Shown here: in pieces, positions 32,836 to 53,463 of the stretch
How the letters are laid out: every line of letters starts with the position of its first letter
How positions within the stretch are numbered: position 1 is the first letter of the stretch
NCBI GenBank assembly: GCA_937910685.1
Contig: CALEMP010000021.1
Coordinates: 53,428-117,427, forward strand
DNA length: 64,000 nt
Source: an uncultured bacterium
GTDB taxonomy: Bacteria > Planctomycetota > UBA1135 > GCA-002686595
Direction of reading: 5' to 3'
The notes under the pieces: generated by a model
Databases searched by the model: none
What the model saw: the letters and a program-made list of their open reading frames with translations, nothing else
What the model was told of the DNA's origin: nothing
Program-made: the position numbers and the translations under genes

Positions 32836-34770
32836 GTGAGCCTTGCAGGTATTGCACTCGATGTCGGACGGTCACAGAAGGTTGATGATGTTGTCGACAT
32901 CGTCACCTTCGTGGAGAGTCCCTGGGGTCTGAACCAACGGCTCTTCCCCGTTCAGCGCATCATCCTCAAAGCTCACTATGGCAACCCACTGGATGACAAT
33001 CCGTGGGGCCTGGACCTCAATGAGCGGATAGACCCGGCTCACCCTGCCTACCAGGAGATTGCCGAACTTGAAGGGGAGGATGAGGGCTACTATCGGCTAC
33101 GGGTGCCCCTCACGAATTGGAGACGGGAGAACCTCGTCTATCTGACGGAGGCCCAGTATCTCCGCAAACTCTTCGATGAAGGTCGATGTAACATCCCAGA
33201 GGTCATTCCCGGAGAGGAACGTAGAGAACTGATACTAGCAGTGGGCAGGCGCAGCGGAAAAACATTCTTGGCAGCTTGTGTCACGGCGTACGAGATCTAC
33301 AAGCTCATCAACCTACAGGCTCCGCAGGAGTACTACGGGCTCCCTAAGACCAATCAGATTGGCATCGTCAGTGTTGCAACGGACAAAGATCAGGCTGGAC
33401 TGCTCTACAATGAGGCATCCGGTCACTTCAGTCAGTGTGCTTTCTTCAAGCCCTACACTGCCAACAACACGATGTCCTATGCGAAGTTCCAAACGCCTGT
33501 CGACATCGACAGGTTCGGGCGGTATTCGGATGACCCATCGGCCAAAGCTACCCTGAAGGTTTCCTTCAAGTCGTGTGTGGCCAAGGGGCTTCGCGGCCCA
33601 GGTAATATCGTCGTCATCCTGGATGAGCTGGCGCACTTCAACGACGCCGGTCAGTCGGACGCCAAGGAGATCTACGGAGCGGTCAAGCCCTCTACCGCTG
33701 CCTTCTCTCCCAAGGATCCAAAGAACCCCACGAAGGCTATTGGTCCGGTTGAAGGGCGGATGATCTCAATCTCGTCGCCTCTCGGGCGACAGGGACACTT
33801 CTACACACTAGCCCAGCAAGCCCTGAAGGGGGGCTTGGCTGCGGAGAGCAAGCTCTTTATCCAAGCCCCCTCCTGGGAAGTAAACATCACCCTGGAGGCA
33901 GGTTTCCTTGAGGGTGAATACGCTTCGGACCCGGTTGCCTTCTTTACGGAGTACGGGGCTCAATTTCTTGATGCCACACGTGGGTGGATTGAAAACCCCG
34001 ACGACCTCCTCGCCTGTGTCAATCCAGAACTGATCCCGCAGATCAAAGGCCCGGCTCTTCGGCCTCATTTCATTGGGATTGACCTCGCGCTGGTTGGTGA
34101 CTGGACGGCGATTGCTATTGGTCACATCGAGGATGGTGGTCTGATCGTTGTGGACTTGGTTGACCGTATCCGGGCGGGTGTGGGTCAGTATGAGCACCTG
34201 GAGCGGCTCGAATTTGAAGATGTTGTGCAGTGGGTTTATGACCTGTCCAAGCGGTTCTACTTTACGGACGGGATCTTCGACCAGTGGGCAGGCATCCCCT
34301 TTGAGCAAGCCCTTTCCAAGAAAGGGCTGTCCCAGCTCAAGTCGGTTCACCACACCAAACCGCTCACCTCGCAAATGTACCAGAACTTCCGGGACATGAT
34401 GTGGGCCAAGCGGCTAGTGCTCTACAACCATCCGGTTGGGCCAGATGGTTACTGTGACTATATCCGGGAACTGCTGGAGCTTCAGGCATCCTATCAGTCC
34501 AAGTACGTGATGGTGGTTGAGGCCCCCAATGTAGATGGCAAGCACGATGACCAAGGGGACGCAATCGTTCGGATGGTTTGGCAGGCTAGCCAACAGCTCG
34601 GGAATCGGAAGTATATTTCAAGAGGTGACCATCGAGGTCAAACTTCCAACGGGCAAGGGATGCAGAAGGCATACATGAAAGCCCTACGTCGGGCTAAATA
34701 CGGTGGTGGGACTAGCACTGATCGGCAGCAGTCCCTCATCAACAGAGGGAGTACACGAGGAAAACGCTGA
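32836..34770 (+). CDS. terL: terminase large subunit
   Basis: Walker A 'LAVGRRSGKTFLAA' and Walker B 'NIVVILDELAHF'. RNase H-like nuclease start 'HFIGIDLALVGDWTAIAIGH'. 644 aa. Confidence 0.8.
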   Translation: MSLAGIALDVGRSQKVDDVVDIVTFVESPWGLNQRLFPVQRIILKAHYGNPLDDNPWGLDLNERIDPAHPAYQEIAELEGEDEGYYRLRVPLTNWRRENLVYLTEAQYLRKLFDEGRCNIPEVIPGEERRELILAVGRRSGKTFLAACVTAYEIYKLINLQAPQEYYGLPKTNQIGIVSVATDKDQAGLLYNEASGHFSQCAFFKPYTANNTMSYAKFQTPVDIDRFGRYSDDPSAKATLKVSFKSCVAKGLRGPGNIVVILDELAHFNDAGQSDAKEIYGAVKPSTAAFSPKDPKNPTKAIGPVEGRMISISSPLGRQGHFYTLAQQALKGGLAAESKLFIQAPSWEVNITLEAGFLEGEYASDPVAFFTEYGAQFLDATRGWIENPDDLLACVNPELIPQIKGPALRPHFIGIDLALVGDWTAIAIGHIEDGGLIVVDLVDRIRAGVGQYEHLERLEFEDVVQWVYDLSKRFYFTDGIFDQWAGIPFEQALSKKGLSQLKSVHHTKPLTSQMYQNFRDMMWAKRLVLYNHPVGPDGYCDYIRELLELQASYQSKYVMVVEAPNVDGKHDDQGDAIVRMVWQASQQLGNRKYISRGDHRGQTSNGQGMQKAYMKALRRAKYGGGTSTDRQQSLINRGSTRGKR

Positions 34771-35024: not shown

Positions 35025-35336
35025 ATGGGAAGACTCAGGGCCAGGACCGCCACCTCACAAGTGGATCGTGATCTCCACTCCAGGTTGGCAAAGGCCATAC
35101 AGGAGTTGGGGGCGGCACGGGACATCTGTGTGCGACTTGGTCGGGACCGGGCTCTCCCTCCCCAAGAGAAGGCCCGTGCTACAGCTACAAGGCAAACTAT
35201 CCAACAGGCGCTTGCGCTTGTGGATAGCATAGGCCACCTGTCGGGACGTTCCAATATGGACTCGGACCTTATGCCCGAAGCGGACAAGCGGCCACGCCGG
35301 GAACAACCTGAGCGCTTCAGTGGGGAGTCTAGCTGA
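35025..35336 (+). CDS. hypothetical small protein
   Basis: 103-aa ORF. The stop overlaps the portal start. Confidence 0.45.
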   Translation: MGRLRARTATSQVDRDLHSRLAKAIQELGAARDICVRLGRDRALPPQEKARATATRQTIQQALALVDSIGHLSGRSNMDSDLMPEADKRPRREQPERFSGESS

Positions 35337-37129
35337 TGGCGCGAACCAATGATCCCAAAGACACCATCGCTGTTCGGGACATCCCTCCCCGAAAAGGTGT
35401 CACCGTTGGAAAACCAAAGAAGATCATCACGTCCGCTATGCGGTCGAAGCTGGCCTTCCCGGCGGCGGGCGGAACCTCAATGGGCATGGGGGGGAACTTC
35501 TACTCCCCTGAACTATCCACCGACTTCCTTGAGCTTCCTCAGTCGATAGATGAGCAGAGGAACTTCTACAGGTTCTTCTACGACCACGACCCCTTTGTTG
35601 GACAAGCCATCGACCTCACCGATGAGCTACCACTCTCCAAAATCCGCTTGCGAATGCCCGAGGCACGGGATCGCAAGCTGGCCGAAGGAGCTTTGCGCCT
35701 CTGCACACGGTGGGCAAAGAAGGTCAACCTGCTTCAACGGCTGTTGGAGATCTCCCATGAGTACAATCTCCTGGGAGAGTGTTTCATCTTTGTCGAGGAC
35801 ACATCTCCTGAAGAGCCCGAGGACTTGCGATATGAACTCCGTCGGGAGGTGACAGCGGAAGGGGACATCGTTGAGGAGAGTTTCAAGCGGGAGGATGCTG
35901 ACGAGCGCGTAGAGGAGTGGCTGAAGAAGAACTACCAGGGTTGGACGGCGATTCGGGTGTTACCCCCGGAGCAGGTCCACATGGAGAGCTTCCCCTTCAC
36001 GGATGAGAAGCTCATCGAACTGATCCCCGACTCAAAGACCAAGGCCATCATCAATCGGGCAGACCAGGGGGATATTCAAGCAATCCGCATCGTGAACTCC
36101 ATGCCACGAGACGTGGTGGAAGCCATCGCGAACGGAGAGAATATCCCGCTCAACATGGACCCCGAAGCAGGGAGCTTTGTTACCTATCTGGCCCGCAAGA
36201 AGAGTCAGTACGAGCCCCGTGGCAAGAGTGTACTACAGCGCTGCCTGCGCTGGTTGATCTTCGCTGATAAGGTTCGACAGAGTCTCACCTCGATAGCTTC
36301 CCGGCACATGACGCCTTACCGGCTCATTTACGCTGAGGACATGGATGCGGGTCAAACCGAGGAGCTTCGGGAACAGGTCGACCTCGCCCTTCAAGATCCT
36401 GACTACAGCATCATCACCAATTTTCAGGTGACCTGGGAGGAAATGGGGGCTGACCAGCGGCTCCCCGATTGGTCCTGGGTCTTTGAGATGGTTGACCGGC
36501 GACTCTATGCCGGTCTTGGGGTCACAGAGACGCTCCTTTCCGGGGAGAGCACCTATTCAGGTGACCGCCTCCACCTGGAAGTCATCAACACCCGGTTCAT
36601 GCTCTTCCGTGAGGTAATGAAGGATTTGGTCGAGGATGGATTCTTCAAACCGATGTGTGCTCGCATGGGGTTCGTGGAAGAGGACGAGGACGGTAACCTT
36701 CAAGTCATCGTCCCCGAACTCTCGTTCACCCGGCTTGCCTTGCGGGACAACAGCGAGACGTTCGACGCCCTGTTCAACCTCTACCAGAAGGGCTCACTGG
36801 ACATCGATATCATCCTCGACCTCCTGAACATTGATCCCGTTGCCACTCGCGAGAAGCTGGAGCGCGACCTGTTCACGGTGAATGACGCAACCTTCAACGA
36901 GGTGTTGCGGGGGGTCTACAGTTCGGTGGGTCAGATGTTGGCGGACAACAGCGACATCGCGAACAAGATCGCTGAAAACCTGGGGCTCAAGTATGAGAAG
37001 CCCAAGGAAGAAGGTGGGGGTCGCTTCGCAAGCATCAAGGATCCTACGGTCACGGTATCCCGGCAGGAGCTGCAGGATTTCATTGCCACAAGGATCACGG
37101 CTGAGTTGGCGGAGCGGGCTACTTCCTGA
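35336..37129 (+). CDS. putative portal protein
   Basis: 597 aa, shortly downstream of terL. 'FYRFFYDHDPFVGQAIDLTDELPLSKI...LLGECFIFVED' resembles the N-terminal part of podovirus-type portals. Called mainly on position and size. Confidence 0.6.
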   Translation: MARTNDPKDTIAVRDIPPRKGVTVGKPKKIITSAMRSKLAFPAAGGTSMGMGGNFYSPELSTDFLELPQSIDEQRNFYRFFYDHDPFVGQAIDLTDELPLSKIRLRMPEARDRKLAEGALRLCTRWAKKVNLLQRLLEISHEYNLLGECFIFVEDTSPEEPEDLRYELRREVTAEGDIVEESFKREDADERVEEWLKKNYQGWTAIRVLPPEQVHMESFPFTDEKLIELIPDSKTKAIINRADQGDIQAIRIVNSMPRDVVEAIANGENIPLNMDPEAGSFVTYLARKKSQYEPRGKSVLQRCLRWLIFADKVRQSLTSIASRHMTPYRLIYAEDMDAGQTEELREQVDLALQDPDYSIITNFQVTWEEMGADQRLPDWSWVFEMVDRRLYAGLGVTETLLSGESTYSGDRLHLEVINTRFMLFREVMKDLVEDGFFKPMCARMGFVEEDEDGNLQVIVPELSFTRLALRDNSETFDALFNLYQKGSLDIDIILDLLNIDPVATREKLERDLFTVNDATFNEVLRGVYSSVGQMLADNSDIANKIAENLGLKYEKPKEEGGGRFASIKDPTVTVSRQELQDFIATRITAELAERATS

Positions 37130-37177: not shown

Positions 37178-37987
37178 ATGGGCTTCAGCAGAACAGCATG
37201 TGTGATCGCGGGTGGCACCTGGGGAGGGAAGCCTTCCCTGCTGAAGATCCGGGACCGGAACTACACACCTCGTGTGAAGCTAATCCGTGATCTAGTCAAG
37301 GGTGTAGAGGCCGTCTACATCTGCGATGTCACCACCGAATGGATTGAAGGACTCAATGAATACGGCATCGGGGTGGTATCTTCGGCTCTCCTGGTTGTGG
37401 ATGATGAGACCGAAAAGAAGGAAGCCAAGAAGTCGCGGGATGGTGACCTCATCCTTGAGGTCTTGGGCCAGAAAACGCTCAAAGCGGCAGTCAGGAAAGC
37501 TGTCGCCAACAAGATCTCCGGGCACACTCTGGTGTCCGACGGCAAAGAGATTTGGGCAGTTGAATACGATCCCGATGAAGCGCCCGAACCGGTAGCCCGG
37601 TGTTTTGAAAAGGATGAGTTGGTCGTCCGTACCAACCACGGGGTGTTCCTGGAGAATGCGGGATACACTACGGGGGCTGACAAGGACTCCTCTCACGAAC
37701 GACGACAGAAGGCGACCACCACCCTCAAGAAGGTGAAGTCACCAGAGGACATTGCTCCATCGCTCATTCACGTTCGACGCAAGAATCGGGAGCACCCCAA
37801 CAACGTGATTCGGGACACGGACAAGATGTCCACCTCGTCCCAGATGGTCCTCATCCCCGGCGACCTGGAGGTGCTGTTCTACCCCATTCCGGGCCGGGTG
37901 GACTTCCTGGGACTGGAGGACAGGCTGCCCAAGGGACGCAAAGGTAAGGTCAAGGTCCGGGTCTTCCACTACTCGGACCTCGCTGCG
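37178..37987 (+). other. domain: Ntn-hydrolase (peptidase C45 / acyl-CoA:6-APA acyltransferase-like)
   Basis: 'MGFSRTA-CVIAGG' (Cys8 after a short propeptide), 'IRDRNY', 'EGLNEYGIGVVSSA', 'LVVRTNHGVF'. Confidence 0.5.
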
Positions 37988-40900
37988 GATAAGCCTGATA
38001 CTCATGAGGTTGAAGGTGACCTCGACCTGTTCCGACTGTTCACTTATGGCTCCATGATAGGTGACCCCCCACAAGCGGGCGACCTGATACGGTCGGAAGT
38101 GGGCACCCTTGAAGGACACCACATCGCGTACAACCGCATGAGTGAAAACCGGGAGTCCCTGGTGATGGGGACAGAGCCGGGAGGGAAGATCGTGGGGGTA
38201 CTTCACGAGTACCCCGTGACCGTTGCTCAAAAAGTGTTGGGATCGGTTGATCGTCGTGAGGGCTTTCGTCCTGACCGGGAAAGGGCGAAGAACAGTTACA
38301 CCCGTACCCCGGTGGTGGTCAAAACCAAGGGTGGTGAGGAAGTGTGGGCGCTGGCCTTCCTCTCCAACCCAGAGCATCCCTCGTACTTCAAGCCCCTGAG
38401 TGTGGCTCAAGCGGTCAAGCAACTCAGCGGGGACGAGGATGGTGCGAAGAAAGGGCGGCGCTACCTGCGGTCCCTGCGACGATTCATGGAGCAGTACGAC
38501 ATTCAGGATGACTACATCATGGGCATCCTGGAAGGGATCGGCTCAAAACCGGACAAGGAGGCCACGGTGAGCACCGGGGCACTGAACCGACGCCACATGG
38601 AGGCATCGAACCACCGGCGGTCCATGGCCCTGGTGAAGTGGCTCTCCGACCTGGCCCGCAAGCTGGGGGTGGGTGAGCACGTCTACGTGGTGGGGGGTGC
38701 CGTTCGGAACTTTGTCCTGAACGCCCCCATCAAGGACATCGACGTGATGATCGACTCGGTCGCCCTGCGTGGCCGGGACAGCGAGTGGTTCGCCAAGGAG
38801 ATCCTCAAGGCGGCCCCGGTGGACATCAACCTCACCACCAACAACTACGGCGTGGCCCTGCTCCATGTGAACGAGGAGTGGATCGTCGGGGGCGAAGACC
38901 TCAAGGGCGAGGACATCGAGATCGCCACCGCCCGCAAGGAGTCCTACGGGGGCGATGGCGGCAAGGGGTACAAGCCGCACCTGGTGGAACCCGCGACGGC
39001 TGCCGAGGATGTGTGCCGCCGGGAGTTCACCTTCAACTGCCTGATGTGGCGACTGCACGACCTGGCCAACGGCCCGGACAAGGCGGAGATCGTCGACCTG
39101 ACCGGGTGCGGGATCTCCGACCTGGCCGAGGGCGTCATGCGATGCCCCTCCGACCCGGACAAGACCTTCTCGGACGACCCCAGCCGCATGGTCCGGGCCA
39201 TCAAGTTCCTGGTGAAGTACGGCTTCCGCATCGACGGGGAGGTGCAAGCCTCCATCAAGCGCAACAAGGCGAAGCTGAAGAACATCCCGCCGTCGCACCT
39301 GGGCTCCATGCTCCTGGACTTCGTCCTCAAGGAGTCCACCGCGACCAAGGCCCTCACGGAGATGGACCGGCTGGGGCTGCTCGACGTCCTCAAGGAGGTC
39401 ATCCAGAAGGACAAGGGCCTGCGGAACACGCTGGCGAACCACGGGGACAGCAGCAACGTCGCCCACATGTTCGTGCTCATGGACTTCGGCCTCCCGTCAG
39501 GGAAGCAGCTGGGGTTCCTGAACCCCCGACAGGTGCAGCGGGTCCGCGACATCACCGTGGAGATGACCGCGTCCGAGGCCAAGGAGTACGTCGCCAACCT
39601 CAACCAGCCGAAGCTGGACAACCGCGCCCTCATGCAGGAGTTCGACCTCAAGGGTGCTGGGATGGGCCAGGTGAAGACGCTGGCCCGCGAGGCCATGCTC
39701 GACAACCACCTGCTCGCCTTCCACCAGGGCAAGCTCACCCAGGCGGTGCGTCGGGCACTGGGCGGGGGCCGCCGTGCGGCATCCTCGGATGTGCAGTACA
39801 TCGGGGTCGTCCTCGACCCCATGGACACGCAGAAGCTGATCCGTCGCTACGGGCAGCTGCACCCCGAACGGCACGCCCACCACATGACGGTGTGGCACTT
39901 CAGGGATTCTTCAGAGGCCCCCCTGCGCCTCCCCTGGGGCCGCACGGTCGACCTGAAGGTCAAGGCCCACCTGGCCGACGACAAGGCCCAGGTCGTGGTC
40001 GTGGACCCGCCCAGGGCGCTTCGCTCGAAGGGGCGGACATCTCACATCACGGTGTCCACCAGCAGCGGCGTCGGCCCGAAGTACAGCAACGACCTGATCC
40101 GCAAGTGGGAGGAGATCCCGGCGGAATCGACTCACCCCACGGTGAGCGGCAAGGTGGCCTGGGTGGACCTGGCGGGGAAGACGCACTTCATGGCACCCCC
40201 GGAGGGGCGTGTTGCCTCGCGGGATGACAGCGAGGGGGACCGTCGCGCACGCCTTCAGGCGGCCAAGCAGTTCCCCGCCAACCTGCTCCCGAACGTCCAC
40301 ACGGTCGTCCCCGCGAAGTACATGGACAAGGTCCCCTACTGGGACGGCATGAAGGAGATCGCGGTCTACCGCAGCGTCCCCGAGGGGATCACGGAGATCC
40401 GACCCGGCGACTGGGTGACCCTGACCAGGAGCTACGCCCGGATCCATGGTCGGGGCACCATCCTGAGCAAGAAGGTGCCCGTGGGCCACGTCTACTGGGC
40501 GGGCACGGACATGAACGAGTGGTTCTACACGCCGGTCGGATCCGGTCGGGTGGCATCGCACACCGAGGTGGTGGTTCAGGGTGGGGGCAAGGAGCGGACG
40601 TTCACCGTCCCCGACTCCTCGGTCCCTCTCCTGCTGGGCGGCCTGCCCGAGGACGCCATCGGACGTGTGGCCGCCCGCTACGCCTCCACGCTGGTCCTGG
40701 ACCATGGGGGGGTGGACACCCGGCACGATGTCCCCGACGACTCCATGCCCCTGCTCTTCAACGCGACCTTCGCGGACGCGGTGAAGGGGGACAGCGAGGT
40801 GGTGGTTGCGGTGGAGCACCTGGTCGAGCGCAAGACGGCCTCGGACGGACCTCGCTACATGCAGGGCAAGCCCCACATGGCGGTCTACAAGAAGCTCTAC

Positions 40901-43438
40901 GACTGGATGCTGACACTGGCCCGGTCGAAGCACCCTGGATCAGGCCGGGCCTACGACCGGATCCAGGTGACCCTCATCGACAACGTGGACCAGGGTGCCC
41001 GGCGGGATCGGCCCGTGGACATGGGCCATCTCAAGCGGTACCTCGCGCAGGCTGTGGAGGCCATGCAGGGGGCCGAGGACTCCAAGGATGTCCGAGTGGT
41101 CGCTGAGATGGCGGCAGTCCTGCGGACAGGACGAATGGCGAAGGTGAACCTGCCCGCGTTGGTCGCGGAGTTCCTCAAGTCCCCGGCGGGGAGCTACCCG
41201 GACCCGATGTCCTGTTCGGACACCAAGGGCCGCTGTGACGGGGTGGCTACCAGGCTCTGCGAGTTCCTGGCGGAGCGTGGGGTGCCCTGCGAGGTGTGGG
41301 AAGGTACGGGCCTGATCCCCCCTCTCGGGAAGGACGCCCACAAGGAGTGGCTGGAGTTCGCGGGCGACCAGCAGAAGTTCCTGTTCCATGTCGTTGCAAG
41401 GGTGGGGAACAAGGTCGTGGATCTGACAGGTGCCCAGTATGGGGCGGCATTTGCGACCCCATACATCAAGCCGTTCTCTGTGTTCAAAGCCCAATGGAAG
41501 AAGGTGAGGCGGTCGCCCATGAGTAAGAGTGCAGATAGGGTTGCCCTTCGCTTCTTGCGTCAAGGATCCAAGCTGGTCTGGAGGTTCAAGGGTTCACAGA
41601 ACCCCTGGGAGCTTGCAACCAGGGCCGGGATCTACGTGTCCCGAGACAAAGAGTTCAAGGCGGGTTACCAGGAGGAAGGCCAACTGGTAGCCGCCCTGTT
41701 CACAAGCGTGAGCGAAGAATGCTTCTCCTTCGATATCGTGGTGGACCCTAACCATCAACGCAAAGGTTACGGGGCCAAGCTTCTTGAGCTTGCCATCGAC
41801 GAGTATGATGAGTTGCTCGACCCCTTCCCGGACATGGTCTTCTGCATTGATGCCGTGAATCCGGTGATGGTTCGTATGCTCAAATCCAAGGGCTTTGAAG
41901 AGACCGGTAAAGAGCAGGGTCACACCCTGATGACCCGACGTGCTTCCAAATTCAAAGACAAGAAGGAGGTGCCCAAAGCAGATGGCAAGGGCACAACCAC
42001 GGTCTATGAGTACAGCGAGAAGCAAGTCCAACATCGCAATCGGGAGAAGGCCAAACGGGTTGAGAAACTCCGCAAGGGGATGTCGGATCTGCGAGCGAAG
42101 TACCGCTCCGACCTGACCAGCAAGGACGACCTCACACGCTATACGGCGTTGGTGGTGGCCCTCATTGATGAAACCTTTGAGCGGGTGGGGAACGAGGGCT
42201 CCGCTAAGGATGGACACTTCGGGGTCACCGGCTGGCGTAAGAAACACATCACCCTGAGTGGGTCGAAGGCAACCATCAAGTACGTCGGCAAGAGCGGCGT
42301 CAGTCAGAGCAAGACGGTCACCGATAAGGGCATCCTGAGTGCTTTGAAGGCTGCTCTAGAGGGCAAGGGGCCAGAGGATCCACTGTGCGAAGGCGACGAG
42401 TGCCGTGTAACTGCCGAGGACGTCAACAAGTACCTCAAAGGCTTCGGGGTGACAGCGAAGGATCTTCGCGGCTTCCACGCCAACAGCGAGATGCAGAAGC
42501 GTCTCAAGGCCATCCGGTCGGGCAAGCTCCCGGAAGACAAGAAGGAGAGGGAGGAGAAGCTCAAGGCGGAGTTCAACAAAGCCCTGGAGGAGACGGCAGC
42601 GGAAGTGGGTCATGAGGCGGCGACCCTCAAGAGCCAATACCTGGTCCCCGGTCTAGAGGACGAGTTCCTCAAGGATGGCACGGTGAGCGAGGGGTTGAAC
42701 AAGCAGGCCGGGGCGTCCCGCAGAGACCTCCTGGATGCCCTGGACCACATGAGTGACAATGCTGGTCGCACCCTACGACTGGCAGATTTCGATGTGTCCC
42801 CTGTCAAGACGGTCAAGCTGGACGACCTCTATGACTATGATGATATCGACAGCTGGGCTGAATTTAGTGAGGGGGAGTTGGCTGACCTGGACCCGGAAGA
42901 AGAACTTGAGGCTGAACTGGAAGGCTTCCGTGGTGCAAGCTGGGCACGTCGGGCTATGACCTGGGTGAAAGCCGGAACGGTGCCGCCCGTAGTGGTTGTA
43001 GAGGCCCAGGAAGCAGTGGGCATTGGGGATGGGCGAGGGCGAATCACACTCGCCCTCGGTATGGGCTGGAGTCAGGTACCAATGGTCAAGTTGACTGAGA
43101 AGACCCACAAGCAAGCCGTCATTCGCGGGGTTCTTCGCACTTTGCTTCAGAAGGCCGACCAGATCAGCGCTGTGTTCGATTGGGGCGTGGCTGAGATGAA
43201 CGGTGTGACAAGCGATCCAGATGACAAGCTTGGTGGTGGTGTCCTGGGTTACGTGTACCGGGTCGGTCGGAACTGGTTCAGCGTCAAGCCTGGGGACCGT
43301 AGCCCCTCACACAGGCAGAGCTTGAGAGATGGTGTCGCTAGCATCCGTCGTGAGGCATGGCGGTCTGTCGGGGTCAACCAGGACAGCGTGAGCAGGGTTG
43401 CTTCGCGTTACCTTCAGCAGTGGGGGTACCCAGGGTGA
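37178..43438 (+). CDS. 2086-aa multi-domain polyvalent protein (probable virion-packaged effector)
   Basis: A single uninterrupted ORF directly after the portal gene. At least eight recognisable catalytic or DNA-binding domains are listed as separate features below. Confidence 0.85.
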   Translation: MGFSRTACVIAGGTWGGKPSLLKIRDRNYTPRVKLIRDLVKGVEAVYICDVTTEWIEGLNEYGIGVVSSALLVVDDETEKKEAKKSRDGDLILEVLGQKTLKAAVRKAVANKISGHTLVSDGKEIWAVEYDPDEAPEPVARCFEKDELVVRTNHGVFLENAGYTTGADKDSSHERRQKATTTLKKVKSPEDIAPSLIHVRRKNREHPNNVIRDTDKMSTSSQMVLIPGDLEVLFYPIPGRVDFLGLEDRLPKGRKGKVKVRVFHYSDLAADKPDTHEVEGDLDLFRLFTYGSMIGDPPQAGDLIRSEVGTLEGHHIAYNRMSENRESLVMGTEPGGKIVGVLHEYPVTVAQKVLGSVDRREGFRPDRERAKNSYTRTPVVVKTKGGEEVWALAFLSNPEHPSYFKPLSVAQAVKQLSGDEDGAKKGRRYLRSLRRFMEQYDIQDDYIMGILEGIGSKPDKEATVSTGALNRRHMEASNHRRSMALVKWLSDLARKLGVGEHVYVVGGAVRNFVLNAPIKDIDVMIDSVALRGRDSEWFAKEILKAAPVDINLTTNNYGVALLHVNEEWIVGGEDLKGEDIEIATARKESYGGDGGKGYKPHLVEPATAAEDVCRREFTFNCLMWRLHDLANGPDKAEIVDLTGCGISDLAEGVMRCPSDPDKTFSDDPSRMVRAIKFLVKYGFRIDGEVQASIKRNKAKLKNIPPSHLGSMLLDFVLKESTATKALTEMDRLGLLDVLKEVIQKDKGLRNTLANHGDSSNVAHMFVLMDFGLPSGKQLGFLNPRQVQRVRDITVEMTASEAKEYVANLNQPKLDNRALMQEFDLKGAGMGQVKTLAREAMLDNHLLAFHQGKLTQAVRRALGGGRRAASSDVQYIGVVLDPMDTQKLIRRYGQLHPERHAHHMTVWHFRDSSEAPLRLPWGRTVDLKVKAHLADDKAQVVVVDPPRALRSKGRTSHITVSTSSGVGPKYSNDLIRKWEEIPAESTHPTVSGKVAWVDLAGKTHFMAPPEGRVASRDDSEGDRRARLQAAKQFPANLLPNVHTVVPAKYMDKVPYWDGMKEIAVYRSVPEGITEIRPGDWVTLTRSYARIHGRGTILSKKVPVGHVYWAGTDMNEWFYTPVGSGRVASHTEVVVQGGGKERTFTVPDSSVPLLLGGLPEDAIGRVAARYASTLVLDHGGVDTRHDVPDDSMPLLFNATFADAVKGDSEVVVAVEHLVERKTASDGPRYMQGKPHMAVYKKLYDWMLTLARSKHPGSGRAYDRIQVTLIDNVDQGARRDRPVDMGHLKRYLAQAVEAMQGAEDSKDVRVVAEMAAVLRTGRMAKVNLPALVAEFLKSPAGSYPDPMSCSDTKGRCDGVATRLCEFLAERGVPCEVWEGTGLIPPLGKDAHKEWLEFAGDQQKFLFHVVARVGNKVVDLTGAQYGAAFATPYIKPFSVFKAQWKKVRRSPMSKSADRVALRFLRQGSKLVWRFKGSQNPWELATRAGIYVSRDKEFKAGYQEEGQLVAALFTSVSEECFSFDIVVDPNHQRKGYGAKLLELAIDEYDELLDPFPDMVFCIDAVNPVMVRMLKSKGFEETGKEQGHTLMTRRASKFKDKKEVPKADGKGTTTVYEYSEKQVQHRNREKAKRVEKLRKGMSDLRAKYRSDLTSKDDLTRYTALVVALIDETFERVGNEGSAKDGHFGVTGWRKKHITLSGSKATIKYVGKSGVSQSKTVTDKGILSALKAALEGKGPEDPLCEGDECRVTAEDVNKYLKGFGVTAKDLRGFHANSEMQKRLKAIRSGKLPEDKKEREEKLKAEFNKALEETAAEVGHEAATLKSQYLVPGLEDEFLKDGTVSEGLNKQAGASRRDLLDALDHMSDNAGRTLRLADFDVSPVKTVKLDDLYDYDDIDSWAEFSEGELADLDPEEELEAELEGFRGASWARRAMTWVKAGTVPPVVVVEAQEAVGIGDGRGRITLALGMGWSQVPMVKLTEKTHKQAVIRGVLRTLLQKADQISAVFDWGVAEMNGVTSDPDDKLGGGVLGYVYRVGRNWFSVKPGDRSPSHRQSLRDGVASIRREAWRSVGVNQDSVSRVASRYLQQWGYPG
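38024..38377 (+). other. domain: gamma-glutamyl cyclotransferase / AIG2-like
   Basis: 'LFTYGSMIGD' (YGS[LM] motif), 'GTLEGHHIAYN', 'VDRREGF...SYTRTPVVVKT'. Confidence 0.65.
38630..39757 (+). other. domain: CCA-adding enzyme / poly(A) polymerase-family nucleotidyltransferase
   Basis: 'VYVVGGAVRNFVLNAPIKDIDVMI' (GGxVR..DxD), 'CRREFTFNCLMW' (RRDFTIN-like), 'DDPSRMVRAIKFLVKYGF' (EDPLRxLRAxRF-like). Confidence 0.8.
39785..40132 (+). other. domain: 2H phosphoesterase (CPDase/LigT/CNPase-like)
   Basis: Two H-x-T-x motifs, 'HHMTVWHF' and 'TSHITVSTSSGVGPKYSNDLI', 55 aa apart. Confidence 0.7.
41195..41497 (+). other. domain: transglutaminase-like / papain-fold Cys-His-Asp core
   Basis: 'GRCDGVATRLCEFLAERGVPCEVWEGTG' ... 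'FLFHVVARVGNKVVDLTGAQYG'. Confidence 0.5.
41585..41947 (+). other. domain: GNAT N-acetyltransferase
   Basis: 'VAALFTSVSEECFSFDIVVDPNHQRKGYGAKLLELAIDEY...AVNPVMVRMLKSKGFEE'. Confidence 0.65.
42125..42667 (+). other. domain: type IB topoisomerase catalytic domain
   Basis: 'ALIDETFERVGNEGSAKDGHFGVTGWRKKHITL', 'IKYVGKSGVSQ', 'VTAKDLRGFHAN', 'EVGHEAATLKSQYLVP'. This is an Arg-Lys-Arg-His-Tyr set in canonical order. Confidence 0.7.
42725..43102 (+). other. domain: ParB/sulfiredoxin-fold (ParB N-terminal-like)
   Basis: 'VKLDDLYDYD...', 'AVGIGDGRGRITLALGMGWSQVPMVKL'. Arg sits where most family members have His. Confidence 0.5.
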
Positions 43439-46684: not shown

Positions 46685-47332
46685 ATGGGTTCAGGTTCAG
46701 CTCGTCAATCCTATGTCGATTACCAACAGAGAGCTTCGGAGTTCTCTGTTGGTGACTCCGTGTACTACTCGATGGATGGTCAAAACCACATCGGGGGTGT
46801 CACAGCCGTGTACCCGGCCATAGGTATGATTGACGTGGAGTACCCTGATGGTAGTGTTCGTCTTCCGGTAGAGGACGTGACCCGCTACGAGTCCAAGGAC
46901 GTTATCCCTCCCGCACTTGAGCACGACAACGTACCGGGTGGGGCAGGGACCGTTCGGGTGCCCGGTGGACCCGTTCCCAGGGCAGCACGGGCCGAACTTG
47001 AAAGGCATGCCAACCGGGTAGCCCAAGCCTGGGTGAAGAAGTCACTCTATTGGGCAGGCAAGGACCGCAAGTACAAGGCAACCTCAGCCGAGATCGCAAG
47101 TGGGAGGTTCTCCTGTCCCAAGTGCAAGAATCACGTGGATGAGGATGAGCCTGTGTACCTTCGCCCCGCCAACTACAAGCGGAGCGAGGGTGTGAGTGAG
47201 CGCCTACTGGGTTGCCCAGAGTGCCTGTTCCTCATCAAGCGTTGTGACATCATCGGGCATCCAGAGTTTGTAGACCCGGATGCCCCCATGGATCCGTTGG
47301 CCCGACACCGTGTAGCTTCGGGGGTGCCCTGA
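46685..47332 (+). CDS. hypothetical protein with zinc-ribbon Cys pairs
   Basis: ATG 46685. 'CPKC...CPEC' and 'NRVAQAWVKK'. Confidence 0.5.
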   Translation: MGSGSARQSYVDYQQRASEFSVGDSVYYSMDGQNHIGGVTAVYPAIGMIDVEYPDGSVRLPVEDVTRYESKDVIPPALEHDNVPGGAGTVRVPGGPVPRAARAELERHANRVAQAWVKKSLYWAGKDRKYKATSAEIASGRFSCPKCKNHVDEDEPVYLRPANYKRSEGVSERLLGCPECLFLIKRCDIIGHPEFVDPDAPMDPLARHRVASGVP

Positions 47333-50265
47333 TGGCTTTCATGAAGTATGCACGGGCTTCCGTGGTGCACCCCCACATCGGGAAGACCGAATGGGCGAAG
47401 GTTCGGGTAGCTGCCAAGACCTCCAACGGAGATCTGAATGACAACCTGGTTGCCAGGGCGTCTGAGCTGTTAGGTAAGCCCTTCAACCCCAAGGACTTCT
47501 TGCTGACCCATGCGACCATCGTCGCTTCGGTCGACACGTTTGAGCCCACAGGGATCAAGACGGGTTCGGTCCTTGAAGGTGGCTTCCGGGTGAACAGGAA
47601 GTACGGTAACTTCCGAATCAAGGCGTCCTGCGACAAGTTCATAAACAACAACTTGGATTCCTGGGACCGGGACGTGCTCCTCAAGAGCTACCGCACCTTC
47701 GTCGGGGGTCATAACTTCTGCTTTGCACCGGGGACGCAGGTGCGTTTGGCAGATGGGTCATACAAACCCATTGAGGATGTGATTGTGGGGGATCTGGTGC
47801 TCACCCATATGGGTAGAGCCCGTAAGGTCACCAGGTTGTTCAAGCGTCTCTATGAGGGGGACATTCAGGCTGTTCAGATTGGGCGATTCAAGGATCCAAT
47901 TCTGGCGACAGGCAATCACCCCTTCCGAGCGTTGAGTGTTGAGGCTCCTCCCCTAGGTCGGTACAAGTCCGGGAAAGCGAAGTCGGCGCTACGTTACCGG
48001 AAAGATCAGATAGTCAAAGCTCTCCGTGGAGAGCAGGCAACCTTTGGCTCTAGCACCCCTGCTTTGCGGAAGGTCGTGGATGCCATGGGGTCTGGCCCAA
48101 TGACGAGGGCCGAAGTGTCCTCTTTGTTGGGTTGCGGGGATGCCGGTAGCTTGCTCAGGCAATACCCCAGGTATTTCGGTGTCAGGCCACTAGCCCAAGA
48201 TGAGAGGCCCAAGTTGCGGGGGCGTTCCCGACCCCGCAAGATGTGGTTCCTCAAAGACACTGCTCCTGAGATCCCCTCGCAAGAGGTGAGGATCATCCCT
48301 GAGTGGGTCAATGCAGGAGACCTGGGCACCACATCCTGGGTTCGGGGGCCGAATTGCAATACTGGATCAGTATCCTCTCTGAAGCGAGCCTCACTACTGG
48401 GCTACTATGCCGCAGAGGGGTGTCTCGCATGGGAGGGTAATGAGAACCCGGTTGCTGTTATTTTGAGTTTCGGTCCTCACGAACGAACTCTTGCCGAAGA
48501 TGCTCAAAAGTTGGCGGAGGACGTGTGGCCTGAAGCTACCGTAAAGATCCATCCGACGCAGACGTCTCTGCGGACAACAATCCGATCAAAGGCTGCAGCT
48601 GCCTGGTTCCAGAAGATGTGTGGTCATCTGGCCCACCTCAAGACGTTGCACCCTTCCGTACACGACTGGGACAGGGAAACTCAGCTTCAGTTGTTGGCTG
48701 CTTGGATGACTGGGGATGGGAACCTACACAAAGGTACCCTCCGACTCCGTGGAGCTTCTGTCTCACGGAAGCTGTCTGACCAGATGCAGTTGGTGGCCGA
48801 GCAGTGTGGTTTGAAGTCCTTCACGGTATTTGAGAAGCGCAACATCGGTGAGGTTGGCAGCCAAGTGCAGATGGTGGTCGGTGGAGAACCCCGAATTTTC
48901 GATGTGATCTCCCGCCACCACTGTTGGACGACCTACGTGTCTCGTTCGGATTGTACCGAAATTGTGTCTCGGTCGAAGCGGTGGGGGCCAGTTGTACCGG
49001 TATCCAACAAGAGCCAGGATCTGGCTTGGTGGGAGGGGGCTAGGCTATATCAGGTCACCAGCAACACAAGCATCCCCTATTCAGGTTATGTCCACAACAT
49101 CGAGGTCGAGGAGGATCACTCCTACGTTGTCGACCACGGGGTCTGTGTCCATAACTGCGAGCATGTTCAGGTAGAAGAACTGTCCAAGGGTCGCATCATA
49201 GACTCTGTAGCCCGCGACATTGGTGACAGTGTTTACACGGACATTCTCATTGCTACCGACCGGAAGCACAGAGATCTCGTCACCGCCATTGTGAATGGCA
49301 AGATGAGCACCCTGTCCATGGGGTGCAGCGTTGACGGCACTCAATGTACGAAGTGCGGGCACTGGGCTGCGGATGAGACAGAGATGTGCAACTGCGTTAA
49401 ATACGCAAAGGGCAACATCTTCTTCGACGAGAACGGCAACAAGCATCGGGTCGCGGAGCTTTGTGGTCACAAGAGCATAGGCCCGACTGGAGGGGTTCAG
49501 TTCATTGAGGCTAGTTGGGTTGCAACCCCGGCTTTCACGGGTGCGGTGCTCAGGAACATCCTGGAGCCTACCGAAAGTCAGTTTCGGCAGGTTCAGGCTA
49601 TCCTGAACACCCCACCACCTCAGTGGTCATCTGACACTCAGATGAAGGCTGCTTTCCTCACGGACTCCAGCTCTGCTTTTGGCTTCTCCTCTGGAAATGA
49701 CCTCCTGGCTGAGTCCAGTGATTTCTTTGCTGGGTGGCAGGATTCCGAAGAGCCTGCGGAAGATGCTGAGGCAAAACCCGCAGAGGAGCCTAACCCCTTC
49801 AAGGATATTGAAGAGGAGATGGTCACCTTCGTGTCCGACCGGGTGAAGAAGCGTCTGCAAGAGCAGATGAAGGGTGACGAAGCCGAGAAGGTTCTCAACC
49901 CTGAGACCCCAACCTCGACTAACGAGACTCTCGTCAAGGAAGGGTCAATTCTTCGCACTGCAACGGATGTCCTCATCCGTACGGCGACAACCAGAGCAGC
50001 CCTCGTGGATGGCATTGCTCAGTTGGCGCAGGCTGGTGGTATCAACATCCCTATCCGGGTCTATCGGGTAGCGGTGAAGATGGGATCTGCGGACTTTGCA
50101 GATCCCACTCGTTTTCAGGCTTGTCTAGCTTCACTGGGTCAGCCCTCTTCTGCTGAGATTCGGGTACTCCGTAAGCTTGGCAAGCTCATCGCACATTGGG
50201 AACGCCAGACCCAAGGTGCGAGTCATACTTTTCAATCTGGTAGTCGCCACAAGGAGACGCAATGA
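47332..50265 (+). CDS. intein-containing protein; extein resembles a T4 gp21-type (assemblin-fold) prohead protease with a long acidic C-terminal extension
   Basis: Spliced text: 'YRTFVGGHNF-CEHVQVEELSKGRIIDS...VYTDILIATDRKHRDLVTAIVNGKMSTLSMGCSV...VQFIEASWVATPAFTGAVL'. Compare gp21 '..GELNHP..VYGRARV..IRAGWIPGVSSRG..VDAVWGPSAPDAWV'. It lies between the portal and the scaffold/capsid genes. The protease call is tentative. Confidence 0.45.
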   Translation: MAFMKYARASVVHPHIGKTEWAKVRVAAKTSNGDLNDNLVARASELLGKPFNPKDFLLTHATIVASVDTFEPTGIKTGSVLEGGFRVNRKYGNFRIKASCDKFINNNLDSWDRDVLLKSYRTFVGGHNFCFAPGTQVRLADGSYKPIEDVIVGDLVLTHMGRARKVTRLFKRLYEGDIQAVQIGRFKDPILATGNHPFRALSVEAPPLGRYKSGKAKSALRYRKDQIVKALRGEQATFGSSTPALRKVVDAMGSGPMTRAEVSSLLGCGDAGSLLRQYPRYFGVRPLAQDERPKLRGRSRPRKMWFLKDTAPEIPSQEVRIIPEWVNAGDLGTTSWVRGPNCNTGSVSSLKRASLLGYYAAEGCLAWEGNENPVAVILSFGPHERTLAEDAQKLAEDVWPEATVKIHPTQTSLRTTIRSKAAAAWFQKMCGHLAHLKTLHPSVHDWDRETQLQLLAAWMTGDGNLHKGTLRLRGASVSRKLSDQMQLVAEQCGLKSFTVFEKRNIGEVGSQVQMVVGGEPRIFDVISRHHCWTTYVSRSDCTEIVSRSKRWGPVVPVSNKSQDLAWWEGARLYQVTSNTSIPYSGYVHNIEVEEDHSYVVDHGVCVHNCEHVQVEELSKGRIIDSVARDIGDSVYTDILIATDRKHRDLVTAIVNGKMSTLSMGCSVDGTQCTKCGHWAADETEMCNCVKYAKGNIFFDENGNKHRVAELCGHKSIGPTGGVQFIEASWVATPAFTGAVLRNILEPTESQFRQVQAILNTPPPQWSSDTQMKAAFLTDSSSAFGFSSGNDLLAESSDFFAGWQDSEEPAEDAEAKPAEEPNPFKDIEEEMVTFVSDRVKKRLQEQMKGDEAEKVLNPETPTSTNETLVKEGSILRTATDVLIRTATTRAALVDGIAQLAQAGGINIPIRVYRVAVKMGSADFADPTRFQACLASLGQPSSAEIRVLRKLGKLIAHWERQTQGASHTFQSGSRHKETQ
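47719..49155 (+). mobile_element. intein (479 aa) with LAGLIDADG homing-endonuclease domain
   Basis: aa 130-608. Starts 'CFAPGTQVRLADG' with block B 'TGNHPF'. LAGLIDADG motifs 'LLGYYAAEGCL' and 'LLAAWMTGDGNL'. Ends 'HGVCVHN' with the +1 Cys (49156-49158). Confidence 0.85.
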
Positions 50266-52587: not shown

Positions 52588-53463
52588 ATGAACAACGTCA
52601 CGAACGCGGTCAAGCAGAAGATCATCGGAGAGTACGTCAAGACCCCCCAGGGTCGCGCCAAGCTCGCCGCTTCCATGACCCAGCCGCTCCGTACGCGGCG
52701 AGACTACGCCGCCGTTGGCCGCAAGACCTTCTTGGTTGAGCAGCTCCCGGACGGTGCCCTTCCGATCTACGACAAGGATCCCGATGTGACGGCCTACGTG
52801 GTTGGTGAGGAGGGTCAGAACATCCTGGCCATCACCAAGCCCAGGCGCGTCATCTTCCCCCTCTTTGAGATCGCGTCCAACCCCGAGATCCCGCTCACGC
52901 AGATCAAGGAGCGACGGTTCGACCTCATCGAGCGCAGTCAGGATCTGGGCCGTGCTCAGATTCAGGCTGCAGAGGACGAGCGTGTCTTCGCGGTTCTCGA
53001 TTCAGTGGCGACCTCTGGCTTCGACAGCCTTCCGGGTCAGTTGAACCCTGACATCCCGGTCATCGCCCCCATTTCGGGTGCGGTCATCGCGGATGCCTTT
53101 GCGCTCATTGAGCGGCACGACCTCCGGGTCGCCCGCATCTACATGAACGCACGGGACTACGCGGATATCCGCAAGTTCGGGCGCGACATCCTCGACATCG
53201 AGTCCCAGGCCACCCTGCTCAAGACCGGACTCCAGGGCGTCATCTACGGCGCTCAGGTGGTCACGAGCCGACTGGTCCCCGTGGGCACGGTCTACCTGGC
53301 CTGTGAGCCCGAAATGTTCGGACGTATCCCCGTACGCACCGAGCTGACCGTCTTGTCCGCAGATGATCCCCGACGTCGTATGATCGGGTTCTCGATCTTC
53401 GAGAACCTCGGCATCGGCGCATACAACCCTCGCGGACTTGCACGACTCACTGTTACCCGGTAA
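52588..53463 (+). CDS. putative major capsid protein (HK97/encapsulin-like size class)
   Basis: 291 aa. Strong GC3 bias. Preceded by scaffold-like and decoration-like genes and followed by two hairpins/terminators. 'RRDYAAVGRKTFLVEQLPDGALPIYDKD' resembles small HK97-fold capsid/encapsulin N-termini. Confidence 0.6.
   Translation: MNNVTNAVKQKIIGEYVKTPQGRAKLAASMTQPLRTRRDYAAVGRKTFLVEQLPDGALPIYDKDPDVTAYVVGEEGQNILAITKPRRVIFPLFEIASNPEIPLTQIKERRFDLIERSQDLGRAQIQAAEDERVFAVLDSVATSGFDSLPGQLNPDIPVIAPISGAVIADAFALIERHDLRVARIYMNARDYADIRKFGRDILDIESQATLLKTGLQGVIYGAQVVTSRLVPVGTVYLACEPEMFGRIPVRTELTVLSADDPRRRMIGFSIFENLGIGAYNPRGLARLTVTR

Follow-up and report, generated by a model that had tools for sequence, protein, structure and literature searches.

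In Escherichia coli, as Yakunin and colleagues reportedly found in 2004, the HD domain of the tRNA nucleotidyltransferase Cca has both 2',3'-cyclic phosphodiesterase and phosphatase activities. When a metal-independent RNase cuts CCA ends, a 2',3'-cyclic phosphate is left on them, whose removal must come before the CCA-adding enzyme can mend the ends (PMC3757041); the cyclic phosphodiesterase (CPD) domain of the tRNA ligase Trl1 leaves a 3'-OH,2'-PO4 end (PMC7145591); and an immunity that trims tRNA 3' tails is known in Cas12a3 (PMC12851939). In phages, the so-called polyvalent proteins are predicted to be packaged and injected, and their listed domains include 2H, GNAT and InPase (PMC5512222). 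Here we describe, in a 64-kb stretch of contig CALEMP010000021.1 (the window, by which we mean the whole of the DNA analysed), a giant protein of 2086 amino acids (aa) in which a class II CCA-type nucleotidyltransferase (NTase) is followed, in the same polypeptide, by a compact 2H phosphoesterase domain, and in which sequence and predicted fold favour, on balance, a role of the pair in healing and rebuilding RNA or tRNA 3' ends.

Both segments are held by a single open reading frame (ORF) on the + strand. The original prediction, made from the letters of the DNA, had described an NTase-2H fusion between 38630 and 40132; these positions correspond to aa 485-985 of the ORF, every string quoted in it is in frame there, and both domain assignments hold, with profile searches returning PolyA_pol and tRNA_lig_CPD and not unrelated families. 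The matches of both domains lie far beyond chance. The limits need a small correction, the NTase module beginning at 38618 and the 2H domain ending about 45 nucleotides (nt) further on than first given. Long ORFs in other frames and on the opposite strand (for example 38785-40227 on + and 38543-39466 on -) fall inside an island of 63-69% guanine-cytosine (GC) content, and all the protein matches found are accounted for by the giant ORF in its + frame. No Shine-Dalgarno-like sequence lies ahead of the internal Met codons where the NTase starts, so that translation of both enzymes within the giant protein is most likely.

The NTase displays all the motifs of its class. GGAVRN (aa 506-511, nt 38693-38710) and DIDV (aa 520-523, nt 38735-38746) make up motif A, and DDPSR (aa 666-670) plus R673 supply the residues of motif D; in a 22-sequence alignment G506, G507, R510, D520, D522, E578, E581, R614, R615, E616, D666, D667, R670 and R673 are invariant, and P0121, the closest ortholog, has the same catalytic and templating residues. 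Motif B reads RRE across the phage family versus the canonical RRD, a conservative and invariant D-to-E change, and its columns R134, R135, E136 and N140 are invariant in that alignment. The Pfam family PolyA_pol (PF01743) finds the head at aa 502-655, where it scores 52.9-57.3 bits, the cut-off being 23, and E 2.6e-15 in a scan of the segment by itself, PolyA_pol_RNAbd gives a weak match at aa 682-738, and PHROG 2244, 'tRNA nucleotidyltransferase', is matched with E 1e-27. In an AlphaFold2 (AF2) model of aa 481-1000 the predicted local distance difference test (pLDDT) score exceeds 90 for the first ~380 residues, and the strong Foldseek matches of this model in the Protein Data Bank (PDB) are only class II CCA-adding enzymes, A-adding enzymes and poly(A) polymerases (PAPs), over ~400 columns and with probability 1.0; the alignment runs from the head through neck and body to the tail, and thereby takes in the parts that bind tRNA, body and tail. 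Motifs, Pfam, PHROG 2244 and Foldseek all agree with the class II CCA/poly(A) polymerase call that had first been made.

Judged by its sequence, this NTase is a member of a divergent phage clade and not the ortholog of a cellular enzyme: it is ~20% identical to cellular enzymes and 26-36% identical to annotated phage enzymes, and all the NCBIfam equivalogs remain far under their cut-offs, with pcnB on top (82 against 305.65 bits) and TIGR02692 as the best CCA model (76 against 438.8 bits). The top PDB sequence match is E. coli PAP. Its relatives at 50-60% identity number in the hundreds and are mostly metagenomic, and stand-alone homologues annotated as tRNA nucleotidyltransferases are found in many large phages, including phage G and Tunturi_5.

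In the 2H domain, the two H-x-T-x motifs that had been proposed are present as H902-M-T904, in HHMTV (aa 901-905, nt 39878-39892), and as H956-I-T958, in SHITVSTSSGVGPKYSNDLI (aa 955-974, nt 40040-40099), and the predicted structure is a 2H fold. Across 75 aligned members of the family, H902, H956 and T958 are conserved in all and T904 in 73; the position five residues after H902 is aromatic or His in 63, and the position 15 residues after H956 is Asn in 66 (N971 here). H907 and N971 correspond to His687 and Asn782 of the Candida Trl1 CPD (PMC7145591). Four residues before the second His, 35 of the 75 members have the Asn of the Trl1 type but this protein has Gly; four residues before the first it has Arg, not the Gln of the Trl1 type; and the two His are separated by 54 residues, versus 85 in Candida Trl1.

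Searched exhaustively with HMMER, 1.84 billion representatives yielded 284 relatives of this short 2H domain, mostly stand-alone proteins of 130-165 aa, with a few inside proteins of 900-2700 aa. The Pfam family tRNA_lig_CPD (PF08302) matches aa 912-979 with 30.3 bits, above its cut-off of 23, and an E-value of 3.9e-7, the match covering only positions 160-223 of the 250 in the profile, that is, its C-terminal quarter, and the domain being about half the size; of the 75 aligned members, 62 match tRNA_lig_CPD, one matches LigT and none matches Acb1 (PF23474, threshold E <= 0.01). Because the alignment is thin there, the 2H part of the aa 481-1000 model had a pLDDT of only 43-70, and a dedicated AF2 model built with the 75 family members reached a pLDDT of 94 and a predicted template-modelling score (pTM) of 0.88. 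The best PDB matches of the latter by Foldseek are the Candida Trl1 KIN-CPD (6u05) and the catalytic domain of mouse CNPase (probability 1.0, query-based template-modelling score (TMq) 0.57-0.64). In the viral library BFVD the top match is an uncharacterised 771-aa protein of Cafeteria roenbergensis virus and the best named one a Marseillevirus 'RNA ligase'. Profiles and models place this domain as a compact enzyme fold of ~135 aa, closest to the tRNA-ligase CPD/CNPase branch, in line with the resemblance to the CNPase/tRNA-ligase CPDase type that the second motif had suggested.

What supports a common task for the two domains is the company that they keep in other proteins. Among the 120 best NTase matches, 67 are longer than 520 aa and have extra domains: HAD_SAK_1 in 19, a PF13563/LigT/AKAP7-type 2H in 13, InPase in four, an RNA ligase in one, and C39 peptidases in some. 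The NTase is thus fused with at least two kinds of 2H domain, and in both orders; with the short 2H the arrangements are 2H-NTase (P0001), NTase-2H (P0084) and NTase-2H-HAD_SAK_1 (P0045, P0049), and the two also occur together in the giant proteins encoded after the portal gene in P0121 and P0127. Seen from the side of the short 2H, HAD_SAK_1 is by a wide margin the commonest partner (13 of 53 multidomain members), followed by TopoIB, the type IB topoisomerase (two), and by NT5C, DSPc, ART-PolyVal, PRTase and GNAT, once or twice each; HAD_SAK_1 is present in the relatives P0045, P0049, P0123, P0196 and P0220. A cyclic phosphodiesterase and a phosphatase convert a 2',3'-cyclic phosphate to a diol, and joined to a CCA-type NTase they follow the logic of 3'-end repair; the fusions with HAD_SAK_1 and the other partners therefore support RNA 3'-end healing and CCA rebuilding as the function. 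The coupling in RNA or tRNA end repair that the original prediction had put forward gains from these repeated fusions, with 2H in both orders, with HAD_SAK_1, with RNA ligase and with InPase. RNA ligase, kinase, InPase and the PF13563-type 2H were all absent from the giant protein and from the window.

The history of the block is also distinct from that of its surroundings. Comparison with P0121 gave synonymous divergences (dS) of 1.08 for the N-terminal domain, 0.61 for the ChaC-like domain, 0.13 for the NTase, 0.21 for the 2H and 0.24 for X1, a domain that follows the 2H, with ratios of nonsynonymous to synonymous divergence (dN/dS) of 0.11, 0.17, 0.14, 0.27 and 0.14, respectively; the catalytic residues do not differ between the two proteins. 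These ratios indicate that the NTase-2H-X1-X2 block, X2 being the segment after X1, is under purifying selection, and the low dS within it (0.13-0.24 versus 0.6-1.1 in the N-terminal part), together with the GC island, points to a cassette that was exchanged or acquired later than its flanks, in a mosaic gene.

In the scheme that we propose, a host metal-independent RNase would clip the 3' tail of a tRNA and leave a 2',3'-cyclic phosphate; the 2H domain would open this ring, giving by analogy with the Trl1 CPD a 3'-OH,2'-PO4 end; and the adjacent class II NTase would re-add the missing C, C and/or A, so that the pool of chargeable tRNA would be kept or restored when immunity or toxins attack tRNA tails. 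The tRNA substrate of this scheme, the sequence of its reactions, the loss of the 2'-phosphate left behind, proteolytic processing of the protein and its packaging or injection are inferred. The healing and rebuilding of RNA or tRNA 3' ends is the best-supported function of the pair, and we hold it to be moderately probable; the fuller statement, in which aa ~481-1000 form a heal-and-rebuild module for RNA 3' ends, most likely those of tRNA, that is likely virion-delivered, seems to us evenly balanced between right and wrong.

Several points weigh against this interpretation: (i) of the 120 NTase relatives that come closest, just 4 have the short 2H. (ii) The short 2H is mostly stand-alone, and in P0123, P0196 and P0220 it is found with TopoIB and without the NTase, so that the adjacency of NTase and 2H in a shuffled giant protein could be incidental. 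(iii) There is no HAD_SAK_1 or other phosphatase in the giant protein or in the 64-kb window, even though a 2H of the Trl1 type would leave a 2'-phosphate. (iv) CCA-adding, A-adding and poly(A) polymerase activities are not separable by sequence, and the pcnB subfamily is the top NCBIfam match. (v) Iyer et al. argued that the 2H domains of polyvalent proteins are RNases or degraders of nucleotide signals and not repair enzymes (PMC5512222). (vi) The stand-alone NTase-2H genes of other phages (L001, L002) sit among small non-structural genes, and therefore packaging is not intrinsic to the NTase-2H pair.

As to how the pair would reach its substrate, its place within a domain-shuffled polyvalent protein of the head gene cluster suggests that the giant protein would probably be made late, packaged and hence present at the outset of the next infection. 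Virion delivery is argued here by analogy, from the post-portal position, the kept synteny (the portal-giant gene-capsid order is found in L003, L004 and L005) and the model for polyvalent proteins, and it is a tentative proposal that may well prove wrong. The giant protein also contains, at its domain borders, five copies of a peptide R-V-A-x-R/H-(Y/W/F/H)-L, versus 0.43 expected from shuffling. Further sites in the window are at 43459 (near the start of the next ORF), 60779 and 27306; the peptide occurs at aa 3-12 in 9 of the 87 closest stand-alone 2H proteins and in none of the shuffled controls, and it lies between domains or at termini in P0001, P0030, P0086, P0123, P0047 and P0002. Such a distribution would suit a site of processing, a tag for capsid targeting or a joint between cassettes. 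The most specific form of the proposal, that the capsid is pre-loaded with NTase and 2H, which are injected with the genome and neutralise an immunity that trims tRNA 3' ends (Cas12a3-like, HEPN or acceptor-end tRNases) before phage gene expression, with the RVAxR(Y/W)L peptides as processing or capsid-targeting signals by which each enzyme would be set free or loaded, we consider unlikely.

Four other explanations have to be set against 3'-end repair. In the first, the two domains are independent effectors: the 2H would erase nucleotide immune or alarm signals (cyclic oligonucleotides, 2'-5' oligoadenylate or 2',3'-cyclic nucleoside monophosphates) as Acb1 or the viral 2',5'-phosphodiesterases do, and the NTase would be unrelated to it. 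Iyer et al. proposed such a role for the 2H domains of polyvalent proteins (PMC5512222), the domains of the giant protein are heavily shuffled, the short 2H members are for the most part small and stand-alone, and Acb1 is indeed among the fold matches, in BFVD after the Marseillevirus protein (E 2.9e-4, TMq 0.51) and in the PDB at rank 46 (7t26, E 2e-2, TMq 0.39). Against this, the family splits 62 to none between the tRNA_lig_CPD and Acb1 profiles and the Trl1 CPD and CNPase are the better folds; HAD_SAK_1, the main partner, is a phosphatase of the RNA-repair type and suits the healing of ends, not the destruction of signals; and in separate, smaller proteins the short 2H is fused directly to the NTase, in both orders. 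The Acb1-like signal eraser that the original prediction had offered as its alternative is disfavoured by the profile count and by the weaker fold match, and an Acb1 identity as the primary explanation was rejected, since profile, fold ranking, HAD_SAK_1 partner and direct NTase fusions all oppose it. We regard the explanation by independent effectors as improbable.

The second, to which we attach the same low probability, is housekeeping: the NTase would mature or maintain the CCA of phage or host tRNAs during infection, a role assumed for the stand-alone CCA enzymes of other large phages, its site in the giant gene being an accident of cassette exchange, with no delivery in the virion. The stand-alone homologues of phage G, Tunturi_5 and many other large phages suit this idea, jumbo phages often have both tRNA genes and CCA enzymes (PMC7824862), NTase-2H relatives are found outside structural modules, and the block looks recently inserted. 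However, a search of the 64-kb window and of ~82 kb from related loci found no tRNA gene, the fusions with cyclic-phosphate-healing domains point to the repair of damage and not to the maturation of primary transcripts, and the portal-giant-capsid order is kept in relatives that also bear NTase and 2H.

In the third, which appears highly improbable, the pair is offensive: the NTase would add poly(A) or other tails that mark host RNAs or tRNAs for decay or block their charging, the 2H would be a Usb1-like RNase or 3'-trimmer, and the outcome would be an early shut-off of translation. The distance from the catalytic strand to motif B bears on A addition; here it is normal, as judged by eye from the alignment with E. 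coli PAP, which speaks against this explanation, as do the repair partners found across the family (HAD_SAK_1, RNA ligase, InPase) and the predicted tRNA-binding body and tail. On its side are the inseparability of class II poly(A) polymerases from CCA enzymes, with E. coli PAP as top PDB sequence and pcnB as top NCBIfam match, the frequency of toxin-like effectors in polyvalent proteins and the RNase role that Iyer et al. suggested for 2H (PMC5512222).

The slightest chance of all goes to a 2H domain that serves the TopoIB of the same protein, healing the nicks with 2',3'-cyclic phosphate that arise when TopoIB cuts at ribonucleotides in DNA: the short 2H does occur with TopoIB and without NTase in P0123, where TopoIB comes straight after the 2H, and in P0196 and P0220 (TopoIB-2H-HAD_SAK_1), and TopoIB is common to the post-portal gene of several relatives, but here the 2H abuts the NTase and lies ~600 residues from TopoIB, the NTase-2H block has a GC and dS history separate from that of the TopoIB part, and the short 2H is seldom paired with TopoIB (in two of its 53 multidomain members).

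The features of the giant protein and of its surroundings are collected in Table 1. Profile scans leave at least four stretches of the protein without a family assignment. For the N-terminal, 761-895, X1, X2 and C-terminal segments Pfam returned nothing at E <= 1; a PDB sequence search gave no match for the N-terminal domain or for X1-X2; a database search with X1-X2 returned six matches, all unannotated; and the sole annotated relative of the N-terminal domain is in Chryseobacterium phage MA9V-1, where its neighbours are hypothetical proteins. The whole gene had no match among GenBank phages by megablast, the whole protein no relative in an IMG/VR pattern scan, and tblastn against GenBank phages gave matches to single domains and no similar giant protein. 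X1 adjoins the NTase in P0127 as well. X2 (aa ~1223-1450, 40844-41530) has a pattern like Cys...His...Asp (CDGVATRLCEFL, FHVVARVGNKVVDLTG), which by eye suggests a possible papain/transglutaminase-like peptidase for the processing of the giant protein, a reading that neither profiles nor homolog annotation back. Near the C-terminus (aa ~1910-1975, ~42900-43100), VPPVVVVEAQEAVGIGDGRGRITLALGMGWSQVPMV resembles by eye a ParB/sulfiredoxin-type motif, with nothing in Pfam at E <= 1; ParB-like domains are typical of polyvalent proteins. TopoIB is shared by the post-portal genes of P0121, P0123 and LR745208 (L007, 14107-15633), was not detected in that of P0127, and is also present in P0196 and P0220 (as TopoIB-2H-HAD_SAK_1); a TopoIB of the head module, possibly packaged, recalls the poxviruses.

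The window is probably part of a jumbo-phage genome. All its genes are on the + strand, in the order replication module (ribonucleotide reductase, RecD-like helicase, UvsX, SbcCD-like, clamp loader and sigma factor), TerL, portal, giant gene, an 828-aa ORF, a 977-aa ORF and the major head protein. Its nearest relative in GenBank is LR745208, a huge uncultured phage of 485 kb (major capsid protein 84%, portal 62% identical), followed by Tunturiibacter phage Tunturi_5 and Bacillus phage G; the portal is 88% identical to that of L003 and 65% to that of L004, and in each a giant gene comes after it. A search for Rfam families found none. The 828-aa ORF (43357-45843), which overlaps the end of the giant gene by 82 nt, is rich in Lys, Glu and Asp and very acidic; no family matches it, L003 lacks it at that position, and it may be a scaffold-like protein or an internal one of the head. 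The stronger matches of the 977-aa ORF are two families of unknown function. The TerL of L003 (4663-7569) and of L004 (4512-7361) is ~320 aa longer, with an in-frame insertion at aa ~201 of the window TerL, probably an intein that the latter (32836-34770) is without. After the major head gene, a 706-aa ORF (53605-55725) has matches to HNH, LAGLIDADG homing-endonuclease-like, and DNA-binding or methyltransferase-like families, and L003 has a LAGLIDADG_2 gene at the same position, so that the place resembles a site for mobile endonucleases within the capsid module.

Table 1. Features of the giant protein, its locus and the post-portal genes of relatives.
Feature	Position (nt)	Strand	Residues or length	Evidence or remarks
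Terminase large subunit	32836..34770	+		PHROG 2 E 4e-22
Portal protein, directly upstream of the giant gene	35336..37129	+		PHROG 16240 E 1.3e-29
Giant 'polyvalent' protein	37178..43438	+	2086 aa	ORF call, domain scans; ortholog P0121 90.5% identical over aa 2-1222, same synteny
ChaC/GGACT-like domain (gamma-glutamyl cyclotransferase fold), directly upstream of the NTase	38036..38533	+	aa 287-452	Pfam PF04752 E 4.5e-7, PF06094 E 1.4e-4
GC-rich island over NTase, 2H, X1 and X2	38500..41400	.		GC 63-69% versus ~56% in flanks; low dS
NTase module	38618..39772	+	aa ~481-865	Pfam PF01743, PHROG 2244, AF2, Foldseek, dN/dS
NTase motif A, GGAVRN plus catalytic D520-x-D522	38693..38746	+		Columns invariant in 22-sequence alignment; identical in P0121
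NTase motif B, RREFTFN	39017..39037	+	aa 614-620	Aligned to 'RRDFTIN' of E. coli PAP
NTase motif D, DDPSRMVRAIKF, nucleotide-templating ED/DDxxR...R	39173..39208	+	aa 666-677	22-sequence and E. coli PAP alignments
2H domain, Trl1-CPD/CNPase-like	39779..40177	+	aa ~868-1000	Pfam PF08302, 284 family representatives, AF2, Foldseek, dN/dS
First catalytic motif, H902-M-T904; H907 at +5, nucleoside-stacking position	39881..39889	+		75-member conservation
Second catalytic motif, H956-I-T958; N971 at +15	40043..40051	+		75-member conservation
RVA peptide copies	40208-40228, 40547-40567, 40664-40684, 41537-41557, 43394-43414		aa 1011, 1124, 1163, 1454, 2073	
X1 domain	40232..40552	+	aa 1019-1125	PHROG 2579 'ParB C-terminal domain' E 1e-12; 70% identity to P0127 aa 73-179
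GNAT acetyltransferase domain	41663..41917	+	aa 1496-1580	Pfam PF00583 E 8.4e-7
Type IB topoisomerase catalytic domain, eukaryotic/poxvirus type	42026..42631	+	aa 1617-1818	Pfam PF01028 E 5.7e-28; PDB 2f4q, poxvirus topoisomerases
977-aa protein, candidate processing enzyme	47332..50265	+	977 aa	Weak match to PHROG 18299 head-maturation protease, E 4.3e-7, aa 610-739
Major head protein	52588..53463	+		PHROG 2522 E 3.8e-47; 84% identity to LR745208
Post-portal gene, LR745208			508 aa	Matches solely the TopoIB segment of the window protein
Post-portal gene, P0121 (147-kb contig)			2396 aa	90.5% identity over aa 2-1222, divergent beyond
Post-portal gene, P0127			1787 aa	X1-NTase...2H
Post-portal gene, P0123			2684 aa	HAD_SAK_1...2H-TopoIB

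Bacterial immune systems repeatedly target tRNA, and trimming of the CCA tail has now been described, by Cas12a3 (PMC12851939). Fusions of an NTase with domains that heal cyclic phosphates represent a concrete candidate for a counter-measure, found here in a giant protein that may be virion-borne; in the literature searched we found no phage counter-measure against attack on the tRNA 3' tail, and a search that combined CCA-adding, LigT/2H and phage returned nothing relevant. The analysis also defines a family of compact, ~135-aa, Trl1-CPD-like 2H domains with 284 representatives, mainly paired with HAD_SAK_1. Should the pair be active, it could serve as a reagent for the repair of tRNA and RNA ends in vitro.

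How does this pair relate to the systems already described? The closest functional analogue is E. coli Cca, which also combines a class II CCA-type NTase and a 2',3'-cyclic phosphodiesterase in one polypeptide, a pairing able to clean tRNA 3' ends and to build them up again; in Cca, however, the latter is an HD metal-dependent phosphohydrolase where the giant protein has a 2H (Pfam scans of it revealed no HD domain, and NF008137 scored 43.6 against a cut-off of 451), and Cca is a cellular housekeeping enzyme, not an embedded phage pair. The stand-alone CCA enzymes of phages (PHROG 2244, Bacillus phage G gp522), common in large phages, belong by profile to the same family as our NTase, which differs from them in being fused to a 2H within a giant protein of the head module. 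Acb1 shares with our domain the 2H fold, a size of ~150 aa and a phage origin, and differs from it in profile and in fusion partners. With the Trl1 CPD of fungi and plants and the CNPase of vertebrates the likeness extends to the two HxT motifs, the Asn at +15 after the second His and the aromatic residue or His at +5 after the first, and by analogy the predicted shared chemistry is the conversion of RNA>p into a 3'-OH,2'-PO4 end. Yet the Trl1 CPD is larger (~200-250 aa versus ~135 here), is eukaryotic whereas this 2H is in a phage context, and is linked to a kinase and a ligase, neither of which was detected in the giant protein or the window.

The polyvalent proteins of phages and conjugative elements, described by Iyer et al. 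in 2017, resemble the giant protein in bringing together many disparate enzyme domains, 2H and GNAT among them, in being encoded next to portal and terminase genes, and in their extreme shuffling (PMC5512222); the giant protein, which combines ChaC-like, NTase, 2H, GNAT and TopoIB domains and sits with the TerL and portal genes, fits this published class by its sequence features. The Pol-beta NTase of the polyvalent paper is of a minimal, protein-modifying type, unlike the CCA-type enzyme here, and its authors saw no 2H version with RNA-repair partners (PMC5512222), whereas the short 2H of this family pairs with HAD_SAK_1 and with the CCA-type NTase. The terms 'CCA' and 'cyclotransferase' are absent from the text of that paper and topoisomerase appears in it only in the title of a reference (PMC5512222); therefore the polyvalent repertoire appears to gain three kinds of domain, the CCA-type NTase, TopoIB and the ChaC-like fold. 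The claim that a CCA-adding enzyme embedded in a structural-module polyprotein is without precedent is overstated: polyvalent proteins with 2H are published, and metagenomic phage proteins often have NTase and 2H fused, in some cases with an automatic annotation to that effect, while we found no description of a CCA-type NTase in a post-portal giant protein.

Finally, there are the end-healing systems of phages, T4 Pnkp with Rnl1 and the Swiss Army Knife proteins (HAD_SAK_1, PF10307). They differ from the present case in that the window has no kinase, ligase or HAD phosphatase, and in that the target implied here is the 3' tail of the tRNA and not its anticodon loop. They are like it in being a modular, end-healing answer to the cleavage of tRNA by the host, and the relatives of the NTase-2H module carry HAD_SAK_1 and RNA ligase, as in T4 and Swiss Army Knife repair.

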